Source of the DNA: Candidatus Moraniibacteriota bacterium
Lineage (GTDB): Bacteria; Patescibacteriota; Minisyncoccia; Moranbacterales; UBA2206
Reading direction: 5' to 3'
Assembly: GCA_049297495.1 (NCBI GenBank)
Contig: JBAQUL010000014.1
Coordinates: 6,359-70,358 of the forward strand
Length of the DNA stretch: 64,000 bases
Shown: piece by piece, positions 4,435-64,000 of the stretch
Layout: the number at the start of each line of letters is the position of its first letter
Numbering within the stretch: the first letter of the stretch is position 1
Program-made: the position numbers and the translations under genes
Notes under the pieces: generated by a model
Database searches by the model: none
What the model was told of the DNA's origin: nothing
The model's input: the letters and a program-made list of their open reading frames with translations, nothing else

Positions 4435-4884
4435 CTATTTATCAAACGTATCCAATTCTCTTTTGAAACTTTCAATATTGGAAAATGATTTATAGACGCT
4501 GGCAAATCGCACGTAAGCTACTTCATCCAATTCCCGCAGTTTTTTGAGAATAATCTTGCCAATTTCCTTCGTGCTTATCTCTGGTTTTTCCTTGGTACGA
4601 ATTTCATATTCCACCTCTCCGATAAATTGGGTAATTTTTTCTTCCGTCACTGGACGTTTTTCCAGCGCCTTTCTCACGCCGGTCTCAATCTTAGTTTTGT
4701 CGTAATCCACTTTGAGGCCACTCTTTTTCAACACACTTAACCGCAAAAGCTCTATTTCTTCATAGGTACTGAAACGCGCCTCGCATTTCAAACATTCTCG
4801 CCGCCGTCGCGTGATTTTGCCCTCATTAGTTTCTCGCGAATCAACGACCTTTGTTTCAGTGTTGTAGCAAAACGGACAATTCAT
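4435..4884 (-). CDS. nrdR: Transcriptional repressor NrdR (Zn-ribbon plus ATP-cone)
   Basis: MNCPFCYNTETKVVDSR...CLKCEARFSTYE zinc ribbon followed by an ATP-cone. Adjacent to nrdDG. Confidence 0.9.
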   Translation of the reverse strand: MNCPFCYNTETKVVDSRETNEGKITRRRRECLKCEARFSTYEEIELLRLSVLKKSGLKVDYDKTKIETGVRKALEKRPVTEEKITQFIGEVEYEIRTKEKPEISTKEIGKIILKKLRELDEVAYVRFASVYKSFSNIESFKRELDTFDK

Positions 4885-5071: not shown

Positions 5072-5314
5072 CTACTTTCCCCGCATTCCCAATTTCGCCG
5101 CAATAATCACCAAAGGGCAATAGCCAGTCAAGGAAAAATTGACCAGCATTGCACCAACCAACAAGGCAAAATATTGGAAATTGAAATATCCTGCCAACGA
5201 CATAAGTACCGAAAAAACAACAAGCAAACCCGCAACCAAAAACACTACCCTTTCCAGATACCAATGATCAATATTTTGACGATAGATTTTTTTAGACATA
5301 TTTTTTATTTTCAA
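5072..5314 (-). CDS. DUF2892/YgaP-like small inner-membrane protein
   Basis: 80 aa with two TM helices and a GYCPLVIIAAKLG motif typical of DUF2892. Confidence 0.5.
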   Translation of the reverse strand: MKIKNMSKKIYRQNIDHWYLERVVFLVAGLLVVFSVLMSLAGYFNFQYFALLVGAMLVNFSLTGYCPLVIIAAKLGMRGK

Positions 5315-5328
5315 AAACTATTTTTTAA

Positions 5329-8300
5329 TTATTCCTGCACAGATTTATCCCATTTTTTATGTTCAGAAATGTAATAAGCGATGGGAAAAATGACGAGCGT
5401 GAGAAAAGTTGATGCGGATAGGCCGAAAATAAGTGACCAGGCTAGTCCTTCCCAAACTGGATCAGAGATGATTGTGAGTGACCCCAGGATAGCTGTTAGA
5501 GAGGTCAGCATGATTGGCAGGAGGCGTATCCGTCCTGTTTCAATCAACGCCTCCATCAGGGGTCGCTTTTGTTTTCTGAGCGGTTCCAGATATTTCAGGA
5601 AAATTACCGTATTTTTGACGGAAAGTCCCGCCAGAGCAATCACGCCAATCATCGAAGTTGCGTTGAAATAGGTGCCTTTGATCGCGTTTAAAATCGCAAA
5701 TCCTGGGAAAACTCCAATCAGGCCAAGCGGGATACTCACCATCAAAAGCAGCGGAAGGAATAACGATTCAGATTTAGCTGCCAGCACAAAATATATAAGG
5801 AAAATTGCCACACCCATTGCCAAACCTAAATCACGAAAAACTTCTAGCGTTAATTTCCATTCTCCACCGAGCTGGGCGAAATAATGTTTTCCTGTTTGCA
5901 AATCTTCATACTCTGCCCCAAGCAAATTCCAACTCACAAGCTTTCCCTTTCCATCAGGAAGTTTGTAAGCAATCAGTTTTGGGAAAAAATCAATGACTGC
6001 ATACACGATGCTTCGATCTTGCATTTCTGCGCTAAGGTACGTAGTGGGCCGACGATCATCAGACAAAATTGGCAGATCGGTCGCCACATTTGTTTTTTCG
6101 ATGATTTCCAATAGCGGAATGCCAGTGCCATTTCGCGAAGGAATTTCAATCTTCGACAAATCAGCTTCGCTATCGCGATCATCTTTCGCGAGACGAAGAA
6201 TAATATATTCCTGTTCCGGTTTTCGCAAATCTTCCCTAGTTGCCTCGTGATACAAGCCAATTGCAGCGCCCGATAGTGCGGTATGCAAAAGCGCGGAAAC
6301 ATCACTTGGCGCCACTCCTAAGAGCTCTGCTTTATCAGTCCGAACACGATAGGTATAGTCCAATGTCCGCTCCTTGGTTGATCGATCAATATCAGTCACA
6401 CCACGAATGCCCGCCATGTCAGATTCAAAATCACGCGCTATCTGTTCTCGCACCTTCTCATCATCCCCTTTTACCTTCAGTAAAAATGTTGCGAGAACCG
6501 GTGGTCCAGGTGGATCTTCGACGACTCGCATTTGCGCATTAGGATGCTCCAGGAGAAACCCTTTCGTCCCTGTCACAACTTCCTGGGCAATTTTTTCCGA
6601 ACTGTGTTTGCGTTCATCAATTCCCGTAAGATTCACCCGCAGCGTCGCTTGATTTTGAAAAAATCGAAAGGAACTGCCTCGAAATAAACCATTAAAATCC
6701 ACTATGGGCGACTCCCCGACGAAGCTTTCAATATTTTTTACTTCTGAGTTTTCTAAAATCAGTTCCTCGAGCGATTTGGCTATCGACCGAGTTTCTCCGA
6801 CGGCAGTGCTAGATGGCAAATCAATATAGACATACAATTGCTCCTTATCCGCTTTGGGAAGCATACGGAAAGGAACCAAGGGAGATAATGGCAAGATAAG
6901 TGAAATAACAAAAACAGCAAAAGTAACGGCGATTATTGTTTTGCGCCGCTTATTCGTTTCCAAAAATGCAGCGAGTAGTTTGGCGTAACGCTCTTCAACT
7001 TTTTTGAAAATCCGGAAAAAAAATCCATCTTCATAGCTCTTCTTTTTTGTTAAATCTTTGGGAGTGAAAATCAGTGCCAAAAAAGGATTAATGGAAACAG
7101 AGAAAATGAGCGAGACAAAAAGTGCCGTCGGCACAAAAAATGGGATGGGTGCCATATAAGGTCCCATCATACCACTCACAAAAGCCATCGGGATAAACGC
7201 AATCGCCATGGTAAGTGTAGAAAGTGCGAGTGCCCCTCCCACCTCATCCACAGCCCGCACGATGAGCCTCACACGATTCTCATTTGGATAGAGGCGAAAA
7301 TAGCGGGCCACATTCTCAATGACTACGATGGCATCGTCAACCAAAAGTCCCAGGGATAAAATAAGCGCAAATAGTGTGATACGATTTACCGTTTGCCCAA
7401 AGAGTAGTCCCACGCCAAAAACCGCCAAAAGAACCAAGGGAATGGAAACCGAAGCCATCATCGCATTGCGAAAACCCAAAAACATCATCAGGAGAACAGC
7501 CACAACAAGAATGGATTTCAAAAGGTCAAAAGTAAGCTTTTTAATTTCTTCGCTCGCGGTCTTGCCTTCATCGCGCAAAACCGAAACATTCGTCTCAGAA
7601 GAAAGCAGAGAGCCCCTCAGTGTTTCCAATTTTGCCAAAGCATTTTTTGAAACTGTTGTTGCATTAGTCCCTTTAAGCTTGGAAAGTGCGATATGCACAA
7701 CAGGAACTTCGCCCTGATCTTTTTGAGTCAACGTGACAAAGCTAGTGATCTCTCCTGGTCCATAAGTAATCTTTGCAATATCTCCCAAGCGGAGAATGGA
7801 CGTTCCTTCATGCCTCAGGACCAAGTCTTCCAAATCCTTAACTCCCCGAATATTCCCCGAAACATTCAAAATTGGATTTTGCGTCTGCCCTTCAATCGGA
7901 TTAACACTAAAAACAGAATTCGCTCCCATAATCGCTCCCATGACTTCCGAGAGAGAGATGTTTCGCGCTGAAAGTTCGCCGACGCGTGGTTCAACAAAAA
8001 GATGATTTATGCGTCCGCCTTTAATTTCCACCTTTGATACCCCCTCAGCCTGCTTCAACTCATCAGAAACATCGAAAGCCACCTTGCGCAGGGATCCTTC
8101 AGACAATGTTTTAGAAGAAAGACCGATATCCAAGATTGGCACATCATCAGGGTCGATTGATTGCACGACAGGATTCATTGCTCCAGCCGGCTTTAGACCA
8201 ATATTGTCTTGCAATTTCTGGTTCAATTCAATCTTAGCATCTTCTCGGTTTGATCCGACCAAAAATTTCACGGTCACGACGCTGCGACCACCGGGAAAAG

Positions 8301-12444: not shown

Positions 12445-12592
12445 TGTCATCCTGAGCGGAGTTCGTACTCGGACGCAGTCGAAGGATCTGCTTACGATAA
12501 TCCTAGTTTTCACGATTTATTACAAAACCTGCGATAACCTAGAGCAGATTCTTCGACTTCTCCGCCAGCTGGCGGATTCGCTCAGAATGACA
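12445..12592. repeat. MITE-like element family F1 (TGTCATCCTGAGCG...CGCTCAGAATGACA terminal inverted repeats), copy 1
   Basis: ~148 nt with 14-16-bp terminal inverted repeats and internal stems (cgaaggatct/agatccttcg; ccgccagctggcgg). Four copies at 12445, 14009, 44515 and 46982. Confidence 0.7.
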
Positions 12593-14008: not shown

Positions 14009-14168
14009 GAATTAGATTTGTCATCCTGAGCGAAGTCCTGTACTCAGGACGTAGCCGAAGGATCTACTAACCGTAACCCATGTCTTCCTATTTCATAACC
14101 AGACTTGAGATGATAGCAAGCAGATCCTTCGACTTCTCCGCCAGCTGGCGGATTCGCTCAGGATGACA
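14009..14168. repeat. MITE-like element family F1, copy 2
   Basis: tgtcatcctgagcgaagtcctgtactcaggac...ccgccagctggcggattcgctcaggatgaca, with perfect 16-bp terminal inverted repeats. Confidence 0.7.
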
Positions 14169-57547: not shown

Positions 57548-57700
57548 GCTTAATTTTCAATTCACAATTTTCAATTTTCATCAAATTTACAATGTCTCAA
57601 TTTCCAATTATTTTTGATTTTGAAAATTTTAAATTGAAAATTGATTGCCTGCCTGCCGGTAGGCAGGTAAATTGTAAATTGGTTATTGAAAATTTTATTA
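57548..57700. repeat. Composite F3 plus F4 repeat block between rsmH and mraZ (inverted GAAAATTG arrays flanking gcctgcctgccggtaggcaggta)
   Basis: aattttcaattcacaattttcaattttcatc ... ttgaaaattttaaattgaaaattgattgcctgcctgccggtaggcaggtaaattgtaaattgg. Confidence 0.55.
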
Positions 57701-60061: not shown

Positions 60062-60179
60062 CTATTTTTAACCAAAAATCCTGTCACTTAGGCAGGATTT
60101 TTCTTTTTGTCTAAATGGTGGTAAGCTAGGAATATAAGAAGCGCCAAAGCTTACAATCCGGAAAAGTCTTTATTTATTT

Positions 60180-60333
60180 CCCCTTCTCCATTAGGGAGAA
60201 GGTGGCCAAAGGCCGGATGAGGGCAAGGGTGTTATATTGAGCAAAAACGAAGCTAGTTTAGATTATTCCTAATATATAGCCCTTGCCCTCACCTGTCACG
60301 TGCTCGCGACATCCTCTCCCGAAGGGCGAGGAG
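60180..60333. repeat. Structured palindromic element family F2, copy C (upstream of dnaX)
   Basis: ccccttctccattagggagaaggtggccaaaggccggatgagggcaagggtg...cccttgccctcacctgtcacgtgctcgcgacatcctctcccgaagggcgaggag. Confidence 0.7.
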
Positions 60334-60361
60334 ATTAGGTACTAAAATCGCAAAAAAAATC

Positions 60362-62029
60362 ATGTCCCAAACCCTTTATAGAAAATATCGTCCAAAAAAC
60401 TTTTCGGAAATTATCGGACAAGCGCACATTGTGCGCACTCTTTCCAATGCCATCAAAAATAACCGTGTCGCCCACGCCTATCTTTTTACTGGTCCCCGCG
60501 GTACCGGAAAAACCACTTTCGCCAGAATCTTCGCGAAAACCATTAACTGCCAGGACCACGCCGATATCAATGCTTGCGAAAAATGCCCAGCTTGCCTCAC
60601 CATTCAATCAGGAAAAACTCTCGATATCATCGAAATTGACGCGGCCTCCAATACCGGTGTGGACAATATCCGCGAGCTAAAAGAAACAATTGCTCTTCCT
60701 CCAACCCTCTTGAAATATAAAGTCTATATTATTGACGAGGCCCACATGCTTTCGACCGGAGCGTGGAATGCTCTGCTCAAAACCCTTGAGGAACCACCTG
60801 CCCATGTCATCTTTATCATGGCCACAACTGAGATTCATAAAGTTCCGGCCACCATCGTTTCTCGCTGTCAGAAATTCGACTTTCCGCGCTGGCCAATGGC
60901 TGACATCATTGAAAAGCTAACCTTAATTGCTAAGGAAGAAAAAATTACCGTTGAAAAAGAAGCGCTGGAGATGATCGCGCTATCAGCCGAAGGCGGAATG
61001 CGCGACGCTGAATCACTACTTGGTCAAATCATTGCGCTTGAAAATCAAACTATTTCTGCTAAAGATGTGGAAGAAATTTTGGGTACAGTGGATAAGAGTT
61101 TTATTGGCGATGTGGCGGAAGAAATTGTCTCGAAAAATACGAAAAAAGCACTAGAGAAAATCAATGAACTCATCTCTGGTGGCTATGATTTGCAGATATT
61201 CAACAAAGCCCTTACTAATCATTTCAGACAACTAATGCTTCTCAAAATTGATGAAAATTTCAAAACCTATTTCGTACGCGAACTGACCCAAGATAAGATT
61301 GAAAAACTCGTCGCACAAGCAAAGAAAAGTGAGCTCTCGCAAATTGTAGCCACCATTGATTTGCTCTTGGTCGCACAAAATAAATTATTCTCCTTCCTTC
61401 TCCCCCAGCTCGCACTCGAAATTGCCATCATCAAAGCCACGCAGAAGTTTCCCGCACCGGCTCAAATGATATCTAGTATCAAGTATGAGGTAGCTAGTAT
61501 AAATGCGGAGAATAAACCAGTAGCTAAGCTAGGTGAGCAGGAAACAAGAAATGCCACTCCCCTTTCCGCTCACAAGATAGAACCTGATTCGAAGCCAGCG
61601 CAATCACAACAGACGAAGAGCACTGCCATAAATTCCGCTGTGGAAATTGACCGTGATATGCTCAAGAGCCGTTGGAACCGCCTGCTCATCGATATCCGCC
61701 CCTACAACCACTCCCTCTGCGCACTCCTTACCAACTGCCAAATTTTGACCACAGAAGGCAATCTCATCACACTTGCCACGCCCTATGAGTTCTATAAGGA
61801 AAAACTAGAAGATCCGCAAAATAGATTGACAATCGAGGAAGTTTTTAGTAAGATTTTAGAATTGGCCGTTCGGATTCAAGTGGTCGTCGACAAGACCCTG
61901 GCTCCTGTTCAAAACTCCTGCGCCGACGACGAAATCGAGCAAGCCAAAGAAAAAGAAAAAACCACCCACGAACAATCATCTCTTCTCAGCTCCGCAATGG
62001 AAATTATGGGTGGGAAGATTGTAGAATGA
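60362..62029 (+). CDS. dnaX: DNA polymerase III subunit gamma/tau
   Basis: Walker A GPRGTGKTT, Zn module CQDHADINACEKCPAC and an SRC sensor motif. Confidence 0.9.
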   Translation: MSQTLYRKYRPKNFSEIIGQAHIVRTLSNAIKNNRVAHAYLFTGPRGTGKTTFARIFAKTINCQDHADINACEKCPACLTIQSGKTLDIIEIDAASNTGVDNIRELKETIALPPTLLKYKVYIIDEAHMLSTGAWNALLKTLEEPPAHVIFIMATTEIHKVPATIVSRCQKFDFPRWPMADIIEKLTLIAKEEKITVEKEALEMIALSAEGGMRDAESLLGQIIALENQTISAKDVEEILGTVDKSFIGDVAEEIVSKNTKKALEKINELISGGYDLQIFNKALTNHFRQLMLLKIDENFKTYFVRELTQDKIEKLVAQAKKSELSQIVATIDLLLVAQNKLFSFLLPQLALEIAIIKATQKFPAPAQMISSIKYEVASINAENKPVAKLGEQETRNATPLSAHKIEPDSKPAQSQQTKSTAINSAVEIDRDMLKSRWNRLLIDIRPYNHSLCALLTNCQILTTEGNLITLATPYEFYKEKLEDPQNRLTIEEVFSKILELAVRIQVVVDKTLAPVQNSCADDEIEQAKEKEKTTHEQSSLLSSAMEIMGGKIVE

Positions 62030-62130
62030 TGTATTAAGTAGGATGTATAATGTATAATGTATTTTAATTTAAAAAATCTTTCAGATTTTTTTTGCTTGAT
62101 ACTTAATACTCAATACATAATACTTACCCA

Positions 62131-62205
62131 GTGGGGAGTAGCCAAGTGGTAAGGCACCCCGCCTCGGCGGGGCATGCGAAGGTTCGAATTCTACAGCCCC
62201 AACAT
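62131..62205 (+). pseudogene. tRNA-like degenerate copy (5' half identical to tRNA-Gln; aberrant anticodon and T arms)
   Basis: The 5' portion TGGGGAGTAGCCAAGTGGTAAGGCA is identical to the tRNA at 62490. The anticodon arm ccccg-cctcgg-cgggg has a 6-nt loop, and the T-stem and acceptor 3' strand pair poorly. Confidence 0.4.
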
Positions 62206-62219
62206 TGTGTAAAAAAATT

Positions 62220-62471
62220 ATGTTCTTTTTTGTTTATATTCTCAGAAGTATTAAAGATAATAAGCTCTATATTGGTCAAACCAATAATTTAGAAGATAGA
62301 CTCTTGAGACACAATGCTGGTAAAGTTACTACTACGAAAAATAGAAGACCATTTGCTATGGTTCATAAAGAAGAATACCTGAGCAGAGCGGAAGCAATGC
62401 AACGAGAAAAATATTTGAAATCGCTAAAAGGAGATTTAGAAAGAAAATTGAATATAAAATTTGGAAATTAA
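62220..62471 (+). CDS. GIY-YIG nuclease family protein (YhbQ/UPF0213-like)
   Basis: FFFVYILRSIKDNKLYIGQTNNLEDRLLRHNAGK ... YLSRAEAMQREKYLK is a GIY-YIG-type motif, closely resembling E. coli YhbQ. The track ORF begins at a TTG at 62205; an ATG at 62220 is preferred. Confidence 0.7.
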   Translation: MFFFVYILRSIKDNKLYIGQTNNLEDRLLRHNAGKVTTTKNRRPFAMVHKEEYLSRAEAMQREKYLKSLKGDLERKLNIKFGN

Positions 62472-62489
62472 ATAAATTGCACCCAGAGT

Positions 62490-62561
62490 TGGGGAGTAGC
62501 CAAGTGGTAAGGCAGGGGCCTTTGAAGCCCCCATGCGAAGGTCCGAATCCTTCCTCCCCAA
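62490..62561 (+). tRNA. tRNA-Gln (anticodon UUG)
   Basis: Manual fold: acceptor TGGGGAG/CTCCCCA (U1:A72), D-arm GCC-AAGTGGTAA-GGC, anticodon arm GGGGC-CTTTGAA-GCCCC, variable CATGC, T-arm GAAGG-TCCGAAT-CCTTC, discriminator A. 72 nt. Confidence 0.8.
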
Positions 62562-62579
62562 CCTTGTGTGTAATATCAA

Positions 62580-62637
62580 AAGTGTAAGGCACCCCGCCGT
62601 GGCGGGGCATGCGAAGGTCCGAATCCTTCCTCCCCAA
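62580..62637 (+). pseudogene. Partial tRNA copy (3' two-thirds: D-loop remnant, aberrant anticodon arm, intact T-arm and acceptor 3' strand)
   Basis: agtgtaaggcaccccgccgtggcggggcatgcgaaggtccgaatccttcctccccaa. The 3' 31 nt are identical to tRNA-Gln and the middle resembles copy 62131. It lacks the 5' acceptor strand. Confidence 0.4.
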
Positions 62638-62726
62638 CATAGGTCATGTAACTTACCACGTTACCAAAAAATAAGCCTTACCTAAAAATAGCTATGAATT
62701 ACTCTTAGGTTGGAAGAAATAAAAAT

Positions 62727-63272
62727 ATGAACGAACAAATAAAAAATCAATTTCAGAAAACTCAGGTTGAAAAAGAATCGACTTCCCTTTTCAAATCTGA
62801 GCTATACGATCCGTGCAAAATATCCTGGGATGAAATTAAAGAGACTGTTTTTGATTTAATACGCACTAATTGTGGTGAAGAAATATTCAATGATCCATAT
62901 TTCACTAAAGAAGTAATAGAAACTCTCTTTAATGATCCGCAAAGTATTGTTGTATTATTGCGAAGCGCAGAGAAAAAAATTATTGGATATCAACTCGCCG
63001 TTCCTGATTCTGAACAGCCGGAAGGTACGGCGTCCTATATCTACGCAACCGATATTTATCCCGAATTTCAGGGAAAGAGTTTAGTTGAAAAGCTTTCAAA
63101 ATTAACGGAGGATGAAATGAAAAGAAGAGGCTATCAATTTATGACTCGTGATTCAGCGATCTATAATGGTTATGCGCTAGCTATTGAAAAAGCCTATGGA
63201 GATCGAATTATAGAAAAGAAAAATCACCGTAGCGACTATGGTGCCCAACGATATTTTAAGATTAAATTGTAA
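62727..63272 (+). CDS. Possible GNAT-family N-acetyltransferase
   Basis: IGYQLAV...YIYATDIYPEFQGKSLVEKL resembles GNAT motif A. Weak call. Confidence 0.4.
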   Translation: MNEQIKNQFQKTQVEKESTSLFKSELYDPCKISWDEIKETVFDLIRTNCGEEIFNDPYFTKEVIETLFNDPQSIVVLLRSAEKKIIGYQLAVPDSEQPEGTASYIYATDIYPEFQGKSLVEKLSKLTEDEMKRRGYQFMTRDSAIYNGYALAIEKAYGDRIIEKKNHRSDYGAQRYFKIKL

Positions 63273-63344
63273 AAAGTTCTATCTTTTTATTAATTTTCAA
63301 AATATACGCTCTAATAACGTCCCACAGCCCCAACAAATTAAATT

Positions 63345-63869
63345 ATGACCGAAAAAAAATATTACAATATATTACTCATTGCCGAAAAAAAGTCTTGTCT
63401 ATCTCTAGAAAATCTAAGGATGGATCTTGTTGGCTCAAAACTTGTCGATCTTCAGCCTCCGCACGTGACGATAAAAAGGAAGTTTTCGCTGAAAAATAAC
63501 TTTTCAGAAAAAGACTTAGTTGAATTATTAAAAAATTTTGAAATGTCAAAAATAATTTTTCCTTTTGATAAATTGGAGCGATTTGGCGATGCAATAGTAC
63601 TGTCTGGAAAAAATAGGGTGCTTTTTGAAAAACACAAAGAGCTTGTCGCATTATTAAAAGATTACACGCAAACGGTAAATCCTGAGTGGGAAGAGAACAA
63701 TTTCACAGCACACCTGACGATTGTTCAAGATCCCGAAAATCGCTTCCAGATTAAGAAAGAAGACTTGGGAATAAAAGAAATTCCTTTGGATGAAATTCGG
63801 CTTGTCGAAATAGATCCTGCTCCCATCAAAATTCATTCGAGGCTACTTTATTCAAAAATTTTAATTTAA
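63345..63869 (+). CDS. 2H phosphoesterase superfamily protein (LigT / 2'-5' RNA ligase-like)
   Basis: Two H-x-T-x motifs (PPHVTIKRKF and TAHLTIVQD) at the expected spacing for a 2H fold. Confidence 0.55.
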   Translation: MTEKKYYNILLIAEKKSCLSLENLRMDLVGSKLVDLQPPHVTIKRKFSLKNNFSEKDLVELLKNFEMSKIIFPFDKLERFGDAIVLSGKNRVLFEKHKELVALLKDYTQTVNPEWEENNFTAHLTIVQDPENRFQIKKEDLGIKEIPLDEIRLVEIDPAPIKIHSRLLYSKILI

Positions 63870-64000
63870 GATAATTAAGTTCTAACTTCGTCCCACAACC
63901 TCAACATGGAAAAAAGAGGCTTAAACAATGCCTCTTTTTTGATGAGAAAGCTTGTGCTTTAAATAAATATCTCAGACCTTGCTTTTATTGGCCAGAAATG

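Follow-up and report, generated by a model that had tools for sequence, protein, structure and literature searches.

The tRNA-Gln locus

The 64-kb stretch of Candidatus Moraniibacteriota contig JBAQUL010000014.1 analysed here (hereafter the window, whose coordinates are used throughout) carries a tRNA-Gln(UUG) gene that is accompanied by partial copies of itself and by a small gene encoding a GIY-YIG nuclease. Downstream of dnaX (60362-62029), and all on the + strand, the order is a degenerate tRNA-Gln copy (psi5), an A-rich leader, the GIY-YIG gene, the intact tRNA-Gln(UUG), a 21-nt leader-like stretch and a truncated tRNA-Gln copy (psi3) (Table 1). The locus is bounded by dnaX upstream and by a genome-specific islet downstream. 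An earlier interpretation made from the letters alone (the sequence-only reading) had described a mosaic of degenerate copy, GIY-YIG open reading frame (ORF), intact tRNA-Gln(UUG) and partial copy, and all four were found exactly where it had placed them or within 1-5 nt of there. The same arrangement recurs in independent assemblies (Logan, JGI, ENA, NCBI), and an assembly artefact is therefore excluded.

Only the intact gene was called as a tRNA when ARAGORN was run on the whole window; psi5 and psi3 were not called, and psi3 has no 5' acceptor strand. The psi5 copy (62132-62202) reached 30.8 bits with the Rfam tRNA model (gathering score 29); its loop has 6 nt, and three pairs of its acceptor and T stems are non-canonical. 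Neither copy was called as a tRNA of another isotype. The first 25 nt of psi5 (62132-62156) are identical to the 5' end of tRNA-Gln (62490-62514, 25/25 nt), and the last 31 nt of psi3 (62608-62638) are identical to its 3' end (62532-62562), as had been claimed from the sequence for both ends. In psi3, tRNA homology covers 8 nt on the 5' side of the hairpin described below and 31 nt on its 3' side. The duplicated 3' flank, CCCCAAC-N-TTGTGT, was likewise confirmed after both psi5 and the intact tRNA-Gln.

A comparable A-rich leader follows a tRNA or pseudo-tRNA 3' end in all relatives. The 21-nt stretch behind the intact tRNA resembles this leader joined to the last nuclease-ORF bases of those relatives that have the gene downstream of the tRNA, and it may have been left by the deletion of a second copy. 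Compared contigs are labelled by L-numbers; L001 is the same genome as the window and runs past the window end.

Table 1. Features of the tRNA-Gln locus and the adjoining islet (window coordinates)
Feature	Position	Strand	Comment
Weak sigma-70-like promoter match TTGATA-17-AATACT (candidate)	62096..62124	+	8 nt 5' of psi5; 9/12 matches
psi5, full-length degenerate tRNA-Gln copy	62132..62204	+	Anticodon arm swapped; T and acceptor stems with mismatches
Hairpin 1, CCCCGCCTCGGCGGGG	62157..62172	.	Putative nuclease recognition hairpin with SRM-like core; stands in for the 17-nt anticodon arm of psi5
A-rich leader, TTGTGTAAAAAAATT	62205..62219	+	15 nt, from psi5 3' end to nuclease start codon
Single-domain GIY-YIG nuclease gene, 83 aa	62220..62471	+	Catalytic Y6, Y17, R27, H31 and E63 conserved
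Intact tRNA-Gln(UUG)	62490..62563	+	ARAGORN; Rfam 66.3 bits
Leader-like remnant, TTGTGTGTAATATCAAAAGTG	62564..62584	+	21 nt; compared with L011, L052, L055 and L002
psi3, 5'-truncated tRNA-Gln copy	62585..62638	+	TAAGGCA, hairpin, then 31 nt equal to the real tRNA 3' end
Hairpin 2, CCCCGCCGTGGCGGGG	62592..62607	.	Within psi3
Start of genome-specific islet	62639..64000	+	GNAT-like ORF 62727-63272; 2H-like ORF 63345-63869
tRNA-3'-end-like motif, copy 1, ..CGTCCCACAGCCCCAACA	63302..63339	+	Between GNAT-like and 2H-like ORFs
tRNA-3'-end-like motif, copy 2, AAGTTCTAACTTCGTCCCACAACCTCAACA	63872..63910	+	Followed by terminator hairpin 63910-63940

A palindrome replaces the anticodon arm

The anticodon arm shared by the two copies, which the sequence-only reading had called aberrant, is a perfect 16-nt palindrome, CCCCGCC-NN-GGCGGGG, that substitutes exactly for the 17-nt anticodon arm. 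In the window it occurs at hairpins 1 and 2 and nowhere else, with 0.04 matches expected from shuffles. Folded as single-stranded DNA (ssDNA), the 31-nt stretch including the palindrome flanks gave -8.7 kcal/mol, compared with -4.2 kcal/mol for the 17-nt real arm alone. Conservation holds for the hairpin stems, whereas psi5 has decayed in its T and acceptor stems. Among 185,579 species genomes, this exact Gln version was found at ten sites (1-3 per contig record matched), all in the Candidate Phyla Radiation (CPR), namely in Moranbacteria and Peribacteria/Peregrinibacteria.

Two candidate origins were rejected. Inversion of the anticodon arm does not account for the palindrome, since reverse-complementing the real arm gives a different sequence. 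For a group I intron or a split tRNA, with the 5' part of psi5 and the 3' part of psi3 as exons, no Rfam intron match was obtained; joining the exons would give a tRNA without an anticodon arm, and the two parts are separated by an intact tRNA.

The nuclease and its likeness to the Ssn family

The nuclease ORF matched PF01541 (GIY-YIG) at residues 3-75 with 68.4 bits (cutoff 22.6, E 6.6e-19), confirming the GIY-YIG nuclease that had been recognised between the first copy and the intact tRNA. Its start was assigned to the ATG at 62220 rather than the TTG at 62205, homologues being 82-83 aa long. Database proteins that match the nuclease and DnaX at 100% identity carry the name Candidatus Moraniibacteriota, which is a CPR/Patescibacteria lineage. 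Invariant positions in a 16-sequence alignment were Y6, Y17, G19, R27, H31, E63 and K67, with N32 nearly invariant. The best relatives of solved structure were UPF0213 proteins (PDB 1ywl and 1zg2, profile scores of 61 and 60 bits), and UPF0213 structures were also the best matches of a homologue from Azospirillum lipoferum. Together, the Pfam and PDB matches establish the fold. UPF0213/YhbQ/YazA proteins (SLX1-like single-domain GIY-YIG) are equal in size and share the catalytic motif, but B. subtilis yazA, the one case examined, lies in the housekeeping operon trmNF-yazA-rsmI and not by a tRNA. All NCBIfam matches were below their cutoffs, PADLOC gave weak PDC-S14 matches alone, and the group I intron endonuclease model TIGR01453 reached 26.7 bits (cutoff 56.05) over residues 4-34 only.

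Small nucleases that act on hairpins are known from the Ssn family (CDD cd10448; SsnA of Neisseria meningitidis), single-domain GIY-YIG proteins of ~94 aa described by Chenal et al. 2025 (PMC11893778). Ssn proteins bind a GC-rich hairpin repeat in ssDNA and cut upstream of the hairpin, and they are inactive on duplex DNA and on RNA (PMC11893778). Their genes typically have Ssn-related hairpin motifs (SRMs) on both sides, which are hairpin-forming inverted repeats of 20-50 nt; SRM is the generic form of the Neisseria NTS hairpin, CGTCATTCCCGCGMAVGCGGGAATCYRG (PMC11893778). The term tRNA has 0 occurrences in the main text of that paper (PMC11893778).

The window protein, 83 aa with the GIY-YIG domain alone, is below the 150-aa limit of the Ssn family. 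The Azospirillum homologue (39.5% identity, E 5e-7, 52 bits), found by tblastn against plasmids, is inserted between sufB and sufC and is bordered by canonical SRMs, CGTCATCCCCGCGAAGGCGGGGATCCAG, whose stem CCCCGC/GCGGGG is that of the aberrant arm in the window. A sequence search of PDB with the window protein found no Ssn structure, and in a profile search the best 120 of 6477 matches were all close relatives, with no direct link to Neisseria or Wolbachia SsnA. The locus shares with Ssn/SRM systems a single-domain GIY-YIG protein of ~80-100 aa with hairpins (~30 nt including flanks) on both gene sides, the stem core (CCCCGC...GCGGGG here, ATCCCCGCG...GCGGGGAT in Azospirillum and TTCCCGCG...GCGGGAA in Neisseria) and a hairpin-gene-hairpin layout like that of an insertion sequence (IS). 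It differs in that its hairpins lie within tRNA pseudo-copies, exactly at the place of the anticodon arm and flanked by tRNA sequence, that the gene is tightly linked to a real tRNA, and that the motif is not multiplied to hundreds of copies. The swapped arm is not a product of decay; it is a conserved palindrome with the core of an SRM and is probably the cis-site of the nuclease. By analogy, the module probably works like an Ssn/SRM pair, whether or not the protein belongs to clade cd10448.

Canonical SRMs, TGTCATYCYCGCGAAGGCGGGRATCCAG, were also observed in intergenic spacers of the closest relatives, at ~4692-4719, ~4833-4860 and 6608-6635 in L054 and at 1011-1038 in L007. They stand next to dnaX, as an inverted pair ~190 bp apart between GtrA and dnaX plus one more copy. 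At 60143-60361 the window spacer has a different GC-rich inverted repeat instead, GAGGGCAAGGG...CCCTTGCCCTC, and a near-canonical SRM lies in the same genome 2.1 kb past the window end (L001 3472-3500).

The same layout recurs at many tRNA genes

Metagenome contigs were scanned with peptide patterns from the nuclease and no tRNA sequence, which returned 45 loci with 40-95% identity. A tRNA gene was present within 150 bp in 36 of the 45, on the same strand as the nuclease gene in 35 of these 36; elsewhere in those loci the background was 5 tRNAs in 136.5 kb (0.037 per kb), so that the adjacency is ~60-fold higher. Relatives at least 59% identical that have a nearby tRNA are found at tRNA-Gln, and more distant ones at tRNAs for Pro, Val, Asp, Glu, Met, His, Asn, Gly and Ile. 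The layout was also found in 4/4 further named genomes, from Bacteroidia (tRNA-Ser), Fulvivirga (tRNA-Pro), Ignavibacteriae (tRNA-Pro) and Margulisbacteria (tRNA-Glu). In most loci the gene flanks are exact (100%) copies of the local tRNA, nt 1-25/28 upstream and nt ~45-75 downstream. The suggestion of a nuclease cassette travelling with tRNA fragments was thus upheld beyond the window. Sequence comparison identifies the locus as one member of a widespread tRNA-linked form of cassettes made of a hairpin and a small GIY-YIG nuclease.

Systematic extraction gave ~40 pseudo-copies (Gln, Pro, Glu, Asp and Val) in which the 17-nt arm is replaced by a 16-21-nt palindrome of the form YCCCG...CGGGR, with perfect stems of at least 7 bp in 35; CCCCGCC-NN-GGCGGGG, TCCCGAC-TTAG-GTCGGGA and CCCCGAT-TTC-ATCGGGG are examples. 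Further pseudo-copies have small palindromes placed in the D- or T-loop instead. Upstream pseudo-copies contain the whole 5' part of the tRNA and then just 5-18 nt past the palindrome, and downstream ones contain ~7-8 nt before the palindrome and then the whole 3' part with the trailer. On both sides of the gene this leaves the palindrome with about 8 nt before it and 6 nt or more after it, a unit as large as an SRM. The palindrome core stays constant while the scaffold follows the isotype, and the palindrome therefore belongs to the nuclease gene and not to the tRNA.

Neutral debris, in which a tandem tRNA-Gln duplication decayed at random with the nuclease there by chance, would be compatible with a degenerate psi5 and a truncated psi3. 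This is extremely improbable given a perfect palindrome conserved across genomes and phyla, a tRNA adjacency so far above background and a pattern repeated at more than 8 isotypes.

The hairpin-bearing copies could also be functional tRNA-like RNAs that, for example, signal processing, act as decoys or regulate the nuclease mRNA, the capped arm excluding them from translation. The score of psi5 above the Rfam threshold, an arm length nearly kept (16 against 17 nt), the co-orientation of every copy with the tRNA and a full-length L053 copy whose acceptor and T arms are perfect and whose CCA is encoded are all in keeping with such a role. We nevertheless regard it as very unlikely: most copies are cut off at one end, the acceptor and T stems of psi5 contain mismatches, the D- and T-loop hairpins found elsewhere would destroy the tRNA elbow, conservation is centred on the hairpin, and SsnA does not bind RNA (PMC11893778).

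Several loci contain tandem units. Four psi5 copies spaced by 104 bp lie upstream of tRNA-Pro in L068 (Fulvivirga, ~900-1330); L023 and L033 have two psi5 copies each, and L024 and L037 each have two successive nuclease-psi3 units. In L053 (Peribacteria), tRNA-Gln(CUG) with ~115 bp of its downstream flank (5104-5300) is repeated 1.2 kb further on (6316-6530), where the repeat is a two-hairpin pseudo-tRNA, the full-length copy mentioned above, which ARAGORN miscalled as a 98-nt tRNA-Leu(CAA). These repeats bracket unrelated ORFs, with the nuclease gene absent between them.

Empty and occupied sites in related Moranbacteria

L071 and L072, whose DnaX is 71% and 66% identical to that of the window, have GtrA-dnaX followed by one clean tRNA-Gln, at which neither the nuclease gene, pseudo-copies nor the palindrome was found. 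Both read as empty sites, which makes the locus the product of insertion events at tRNA-Gln. In these two, tRNA-Gln is single and uninterrupted; three functional tRNAs were found in no relative.

The module is present in at least 10 other genomes in differing permutations (occupied, besides the window: L002, L005, L007, L009-L011, L052, L055 and L059). The order is psi5-GIY-tRNA-psi3 in the window, L002, L007/L054 and L009; psi5-GIY-tRNA in L059; psi5-tRNA-GIY-psi3 in L011/L057 and L052; psi5-tRNA-psi-GIY-psi3 in L010; a tRNA-psi-GIY-psi3 remnant in L005; and tRNA-GIY-psi3 in L055. Upstream genes (MraZ, a 255-aa ORF, GtrA and dnaX) are syntenic in all relatives at 63-90% nucleotide identity, and homology with all of them ends exactly at the psi3 3' end. 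In L007/L054 the flanking genes are 85-90% identical to the window, yet psi5 has no D arm (GGGGAGTAGC is joined straight to the palindrome). An additional palindrome sits in the D-loop in L002 and others.

The nuclease and its host genes do not share one pattern of relatedness. DnaX of L009 groups with that of L052/L055 (79-80% aa), and its nuclease groups with the window group (80-90% identity, against 67-75%); the nuclease is on opposite sides of the tRNA in L009 and L052 despite 80% aa identity in dnaX. At third codon positions, nuclease genes have an identity of 0.70-0.77 and dnaX genes one of 0.50-0.58. This incongruence fits transfer or repeated conversion of the nuclease gene.

Such a pattern would also be expected of a free-standing homing endonuclease of the T4 SegB kind, which would cut the double-stranded DNA of nuclease-free tRNA-Gln alleles and have its gene copied in by repair, the pseudo-copies being co-conversion debris and the swapped arm conferring immunity to cleavage. 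A GIY-YIG domain, the weak N-terminal TIGR01453 match (26.7 bits), the existence of both empty and occupied alleles, a nuclease tree at odds with the host gene tree and a real tRNA-Gln anticodon stem that is wholly different between close relatives agree with this, and SegB-type genes share the position by tRNA genes, the presence/absence polymorphism and co-inherited flanks. Phage T4 Seg proteins, however, are phage-borne, have ~200 aa or more with DNA-binding domains and cut the double-stranded DNA of a rival genome. The window protein has 83 aa and no DNA-binding domain, and its TIGR01453 score is far under the cutoff. Hairpin-substituted tRNA copies are found here and are not known for Seg; immunity needs no perfect conserved palindrome common to several tRNA isotypes, and the palindrome core is that of the SRM hairpin of ssDNA nucleases. 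The family here is chromosomal and almost absent from viral contigs (four IMG/VR matches, none beside a tRNA). Homing of the SegB type therefore keeps a small share of our confidence, and the classical homing endonuclease raised by the sequence-only reading is unlikely for a protein of this size and build.

The real tRNA-Gln itself varies among these genomes. Its T-loop in the window (62543-62549) is TCCGAAT, with C at the nearly universal U55, as in L002, L007/L054 and L052/L055; the canonical TTCGAAT is kept in psi5 and in other relatives. In the anticodon stem (62515-62531), all or most of the five pairs differ from those of L005, L009-L011, L052 and L055, with the versions GGGGC/GCCCC, ACGGA/TCCGT and ATGGA/TCCAT among close relatives and the remaining tRNA nearly invariant. 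The spacer from dnaX to the tRNA consists of lineage-specific AT-rich short tandem or inverted repeats, of TGTATAA type in the window (62023-62124), GGTATTT x10 in L005 (5700-5800) and CATGTTT upstream of the locus in L055 and L059.

The downstream islet and other repeats

A conserved anchor, ATTCAATAAATCAGGCTTTTTTAAGCCTTTTTTG...TTGACAAAA, directly follows psi3 in L005 and L010; it lies 1.2 kb further on in L002 and 2.7 kb further on in the window genome, each time preceded by a decayed tRNA-3'-like end. The 2.7-kb islet of the window genome, absent from all relatives, contains a GNAT-like ORF, a 2H-like ORF and two ORFs without a match. The 2H-like ORF weakly matched LigT_PEase at 25.4 bits (cutoff 23.3) and 2_5_RNA_ligase2 at 26.7 bits (cutoff 27) and has two HxT motifs, HVT and HLT. 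It may be the 2H phosphoesterase named by the sequence-only reading. The islet is absent from relatives and interspersed with tRNA-3'-like motifs, and the 2H gene is therefore islet cargo and not a partner of the nuclease.

This ~30-nt motif, AAGTTCYAACTTCGTCCCAC(A)GCCCCAAYA, resembles the T arm and acceptor 3' end of tRNA-Gln. Further copies are at L001 2740-2775 and L001 4105-4142, the latter beyond the anchor, and the first 62 kb of the window contain none. A fuzzy search found a 19/20-identical copy in L065 (Parcubacteria, 2370-2399), at the place of the tRNA 3' end before a second psi3-nuclease unit, and an nhmmer profile of the motif matched only the window genome and, weakly, the psi5 3' end.

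These remnants bear on an integrase-mediated integration or excision at the tRNA, which would have carried the nuclease along as passive cargo and left the copies as decayed attL/attR remnants. The locus recalls the tRNA genomic islands of tyrosine or serine integrases. There, direct repeats of the tRNA 3' part bound an insert, and 3' ends from earlier events move outwards and degrade, as would fit the downstream islet. Duplicated tRNA 3' segments with trailer, a variable islet edged by tRNA-3'-like remnants and a conserved 3'-end-plus-terminator anchor, and a recombinase-like fragment adjoining tRNA-Gln in L071 all point in this direction. Against it, no integrase ORF or Pfam match was found from 62 kb to 3.9 kb past the window end; 5' halves are duplicated as well as 3' parts (25 nt in psi5, and generally across the family); the nuclease is the sole gene of the inserted unit, which measures ~0.4 kb; and the architecture is identical at many tRNAs, with the exchange of arm for hairpin unexplained. 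An integrase footprint is accordingly quite unlikely for the nuclease unit, and integrase-type integration may be the source of the downstream islet. Of the mobile-event footprint proposed from the sequence, the insertion stands, as shown by the empty sites, and the classical site-specific integration does not.

Promoter-type sites in the region numbered 11, against 6.8 ± 2.6 in shuffles, and were taken as not above them. A terminator scan of the region called none and overlooked the hairpin behind motif copy 2.

Other repeats were noted in the window. One is another conserved hairpin, CCTGCCTGCCGG(T/C)AGGCAGG, found on its own in a spacer at 57644-57667; the same 20 nt occur in the psi3 T-loop of L052, L009 and L005 and just upstream of the nuclease unit in Margulisbacteria L070 (~1400). 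A ~45-nt repeat with copies 1.6 kb apart (12546-12590 and 14122-14166) contains the palindrome TCCGCCAGCTGGCGGA, its other strand starting TGTCATYCTGAGCGAA, and may represent another hairpin-repeat family.

Discussion

The observations are best accommodated by an inserted Ssn-like nuclease cassette that carries its recognition hairpin within pseudo-copies of a tRNA and uses tRNA homology to spread or rearrange, a reading that we hold to be probable, with considerable room for doubt. The relatives show that the ancestral state was dnaX, tRNA-Gln and terminator. The module, consisting of a tRNA piece with the hairpin, the nuclease gene and a second such piece, is present or absent by lineage and is rearranged even between near-identical genomes, and the hairpin core YCCCG...CGGGR travels with homologous nuclease genes across tRNA isotypes. 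We infer cleavage and mobility. By analogy with the Ssn family, the protein would bind the hairpin in ssDNA and nick a few nt 5' of it, i.e. in the D-loop part of the pseudo-copy, which is approximately where downstream pseudo-copies begin; the real tRNA would stay intact because it has no hairpin. Breaks formed as DNA is replicated, transcribed or taken up in transformation would be repaired by recombination with adjacent or homologous tRNA sequence, giving rise to partial duplications. The same repair would hold the pseudo-halves to the exact sequence of the real tRNA and would admit the cassette to any genome with that conserved tRNA, the tRNA sequence serving as portable homology arms. With a co-oriented tRNA 15-40 nt away, the gene could also draw on the tRNA promoter for its expression.

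Comparable pairs are known with another fold. Repetitive extragenic palindromes (REP) and the mosaic elements built of them (BIME), with their transposase RAYT (TnpA-REP), and the IS200/IS605 elements use the HUH Y1 fold, and REPs are dispersed in hundreds of copies. They share with the locus one small nuclease gene between hairpins recognised on ssDNA, as a selfish or domesticated pair; the fold here is GIY-YIG, and the hairpins are grafted into tRNA scaffolds, which is not known of REPs.

Several points weigh against the Ssn-like cassette. The protein is as near to UPF0213 YazA (53 bits) as to the SRM-flanked Azospirillum protein (52 bits). The SRM consensus HGTCWYN(0-2)YYVSBRHN(0-5)WNVSBRGN(0-2)RNCYNB has 0 matches in the window, where the pseudo-tRNA hairpin is flanked by GGCA/CATGCG as opposed to GTCWY/RNCYNB in the consensus; it does match the L054 and L007 spacers and the Azospirillum flanks. 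The hairpin is without Neisseria-like genome-wide amplification, at two copies in 64 kb and 1-3 sites per contig record matched. Ancient paralogy with differential loss could mimic transfer, and AT-biased codon usage could partly cause the higher synonymous identity of the nuclease. Finally, a hydrolytic nuclease alone leaves the base-precise arm swap unexplained.

More broadly, and only as a tentative proposal, the cassettes may form a previously unrecognised widespread class of selfish elements associated with tRNA genes. Their recognition hairpin would be grafted base-precisely at the anticodon arm or the D-/T-loops of a duplicated tRNA, whose sequence (possibly as a DNA cloverleaf) would provide both landing pad and homology arms. 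Such elements would have moved between at least 10 isotypes and several phyla (CPR, Bacteroidota, Ignavibacteriota and Margulisbacteria) and may seed small cargo islets with tRNA-3'-like ends. No description of a tRNA-linked hairpin/GIY-YIG form was found in the literature searched, where the related work comprised the Ssn paper and phage SegB.

The precise anticodon-arm swap is the most interesting point. For the role of Ssn-type nucleases outside Neisseria, the locus offers a natural setting that ties together a nuclease, a hairpin and a defined target, the tRNA gene, and this linkage makes function and mobility directly testable with few oligonucleotides. The natural hairpin/nuclease pairs form a panel for ssDNA tools. 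Cassettes of this kind would account for a class of tRNA pseudogenes and tRNA fragments on which the annotation of CPR and Bacteroidota genomes goes astray, such as the 98-nt 'tRNA-Leu' of L053. They show that no integrase is needed for a tRNA locus to be remodelled.

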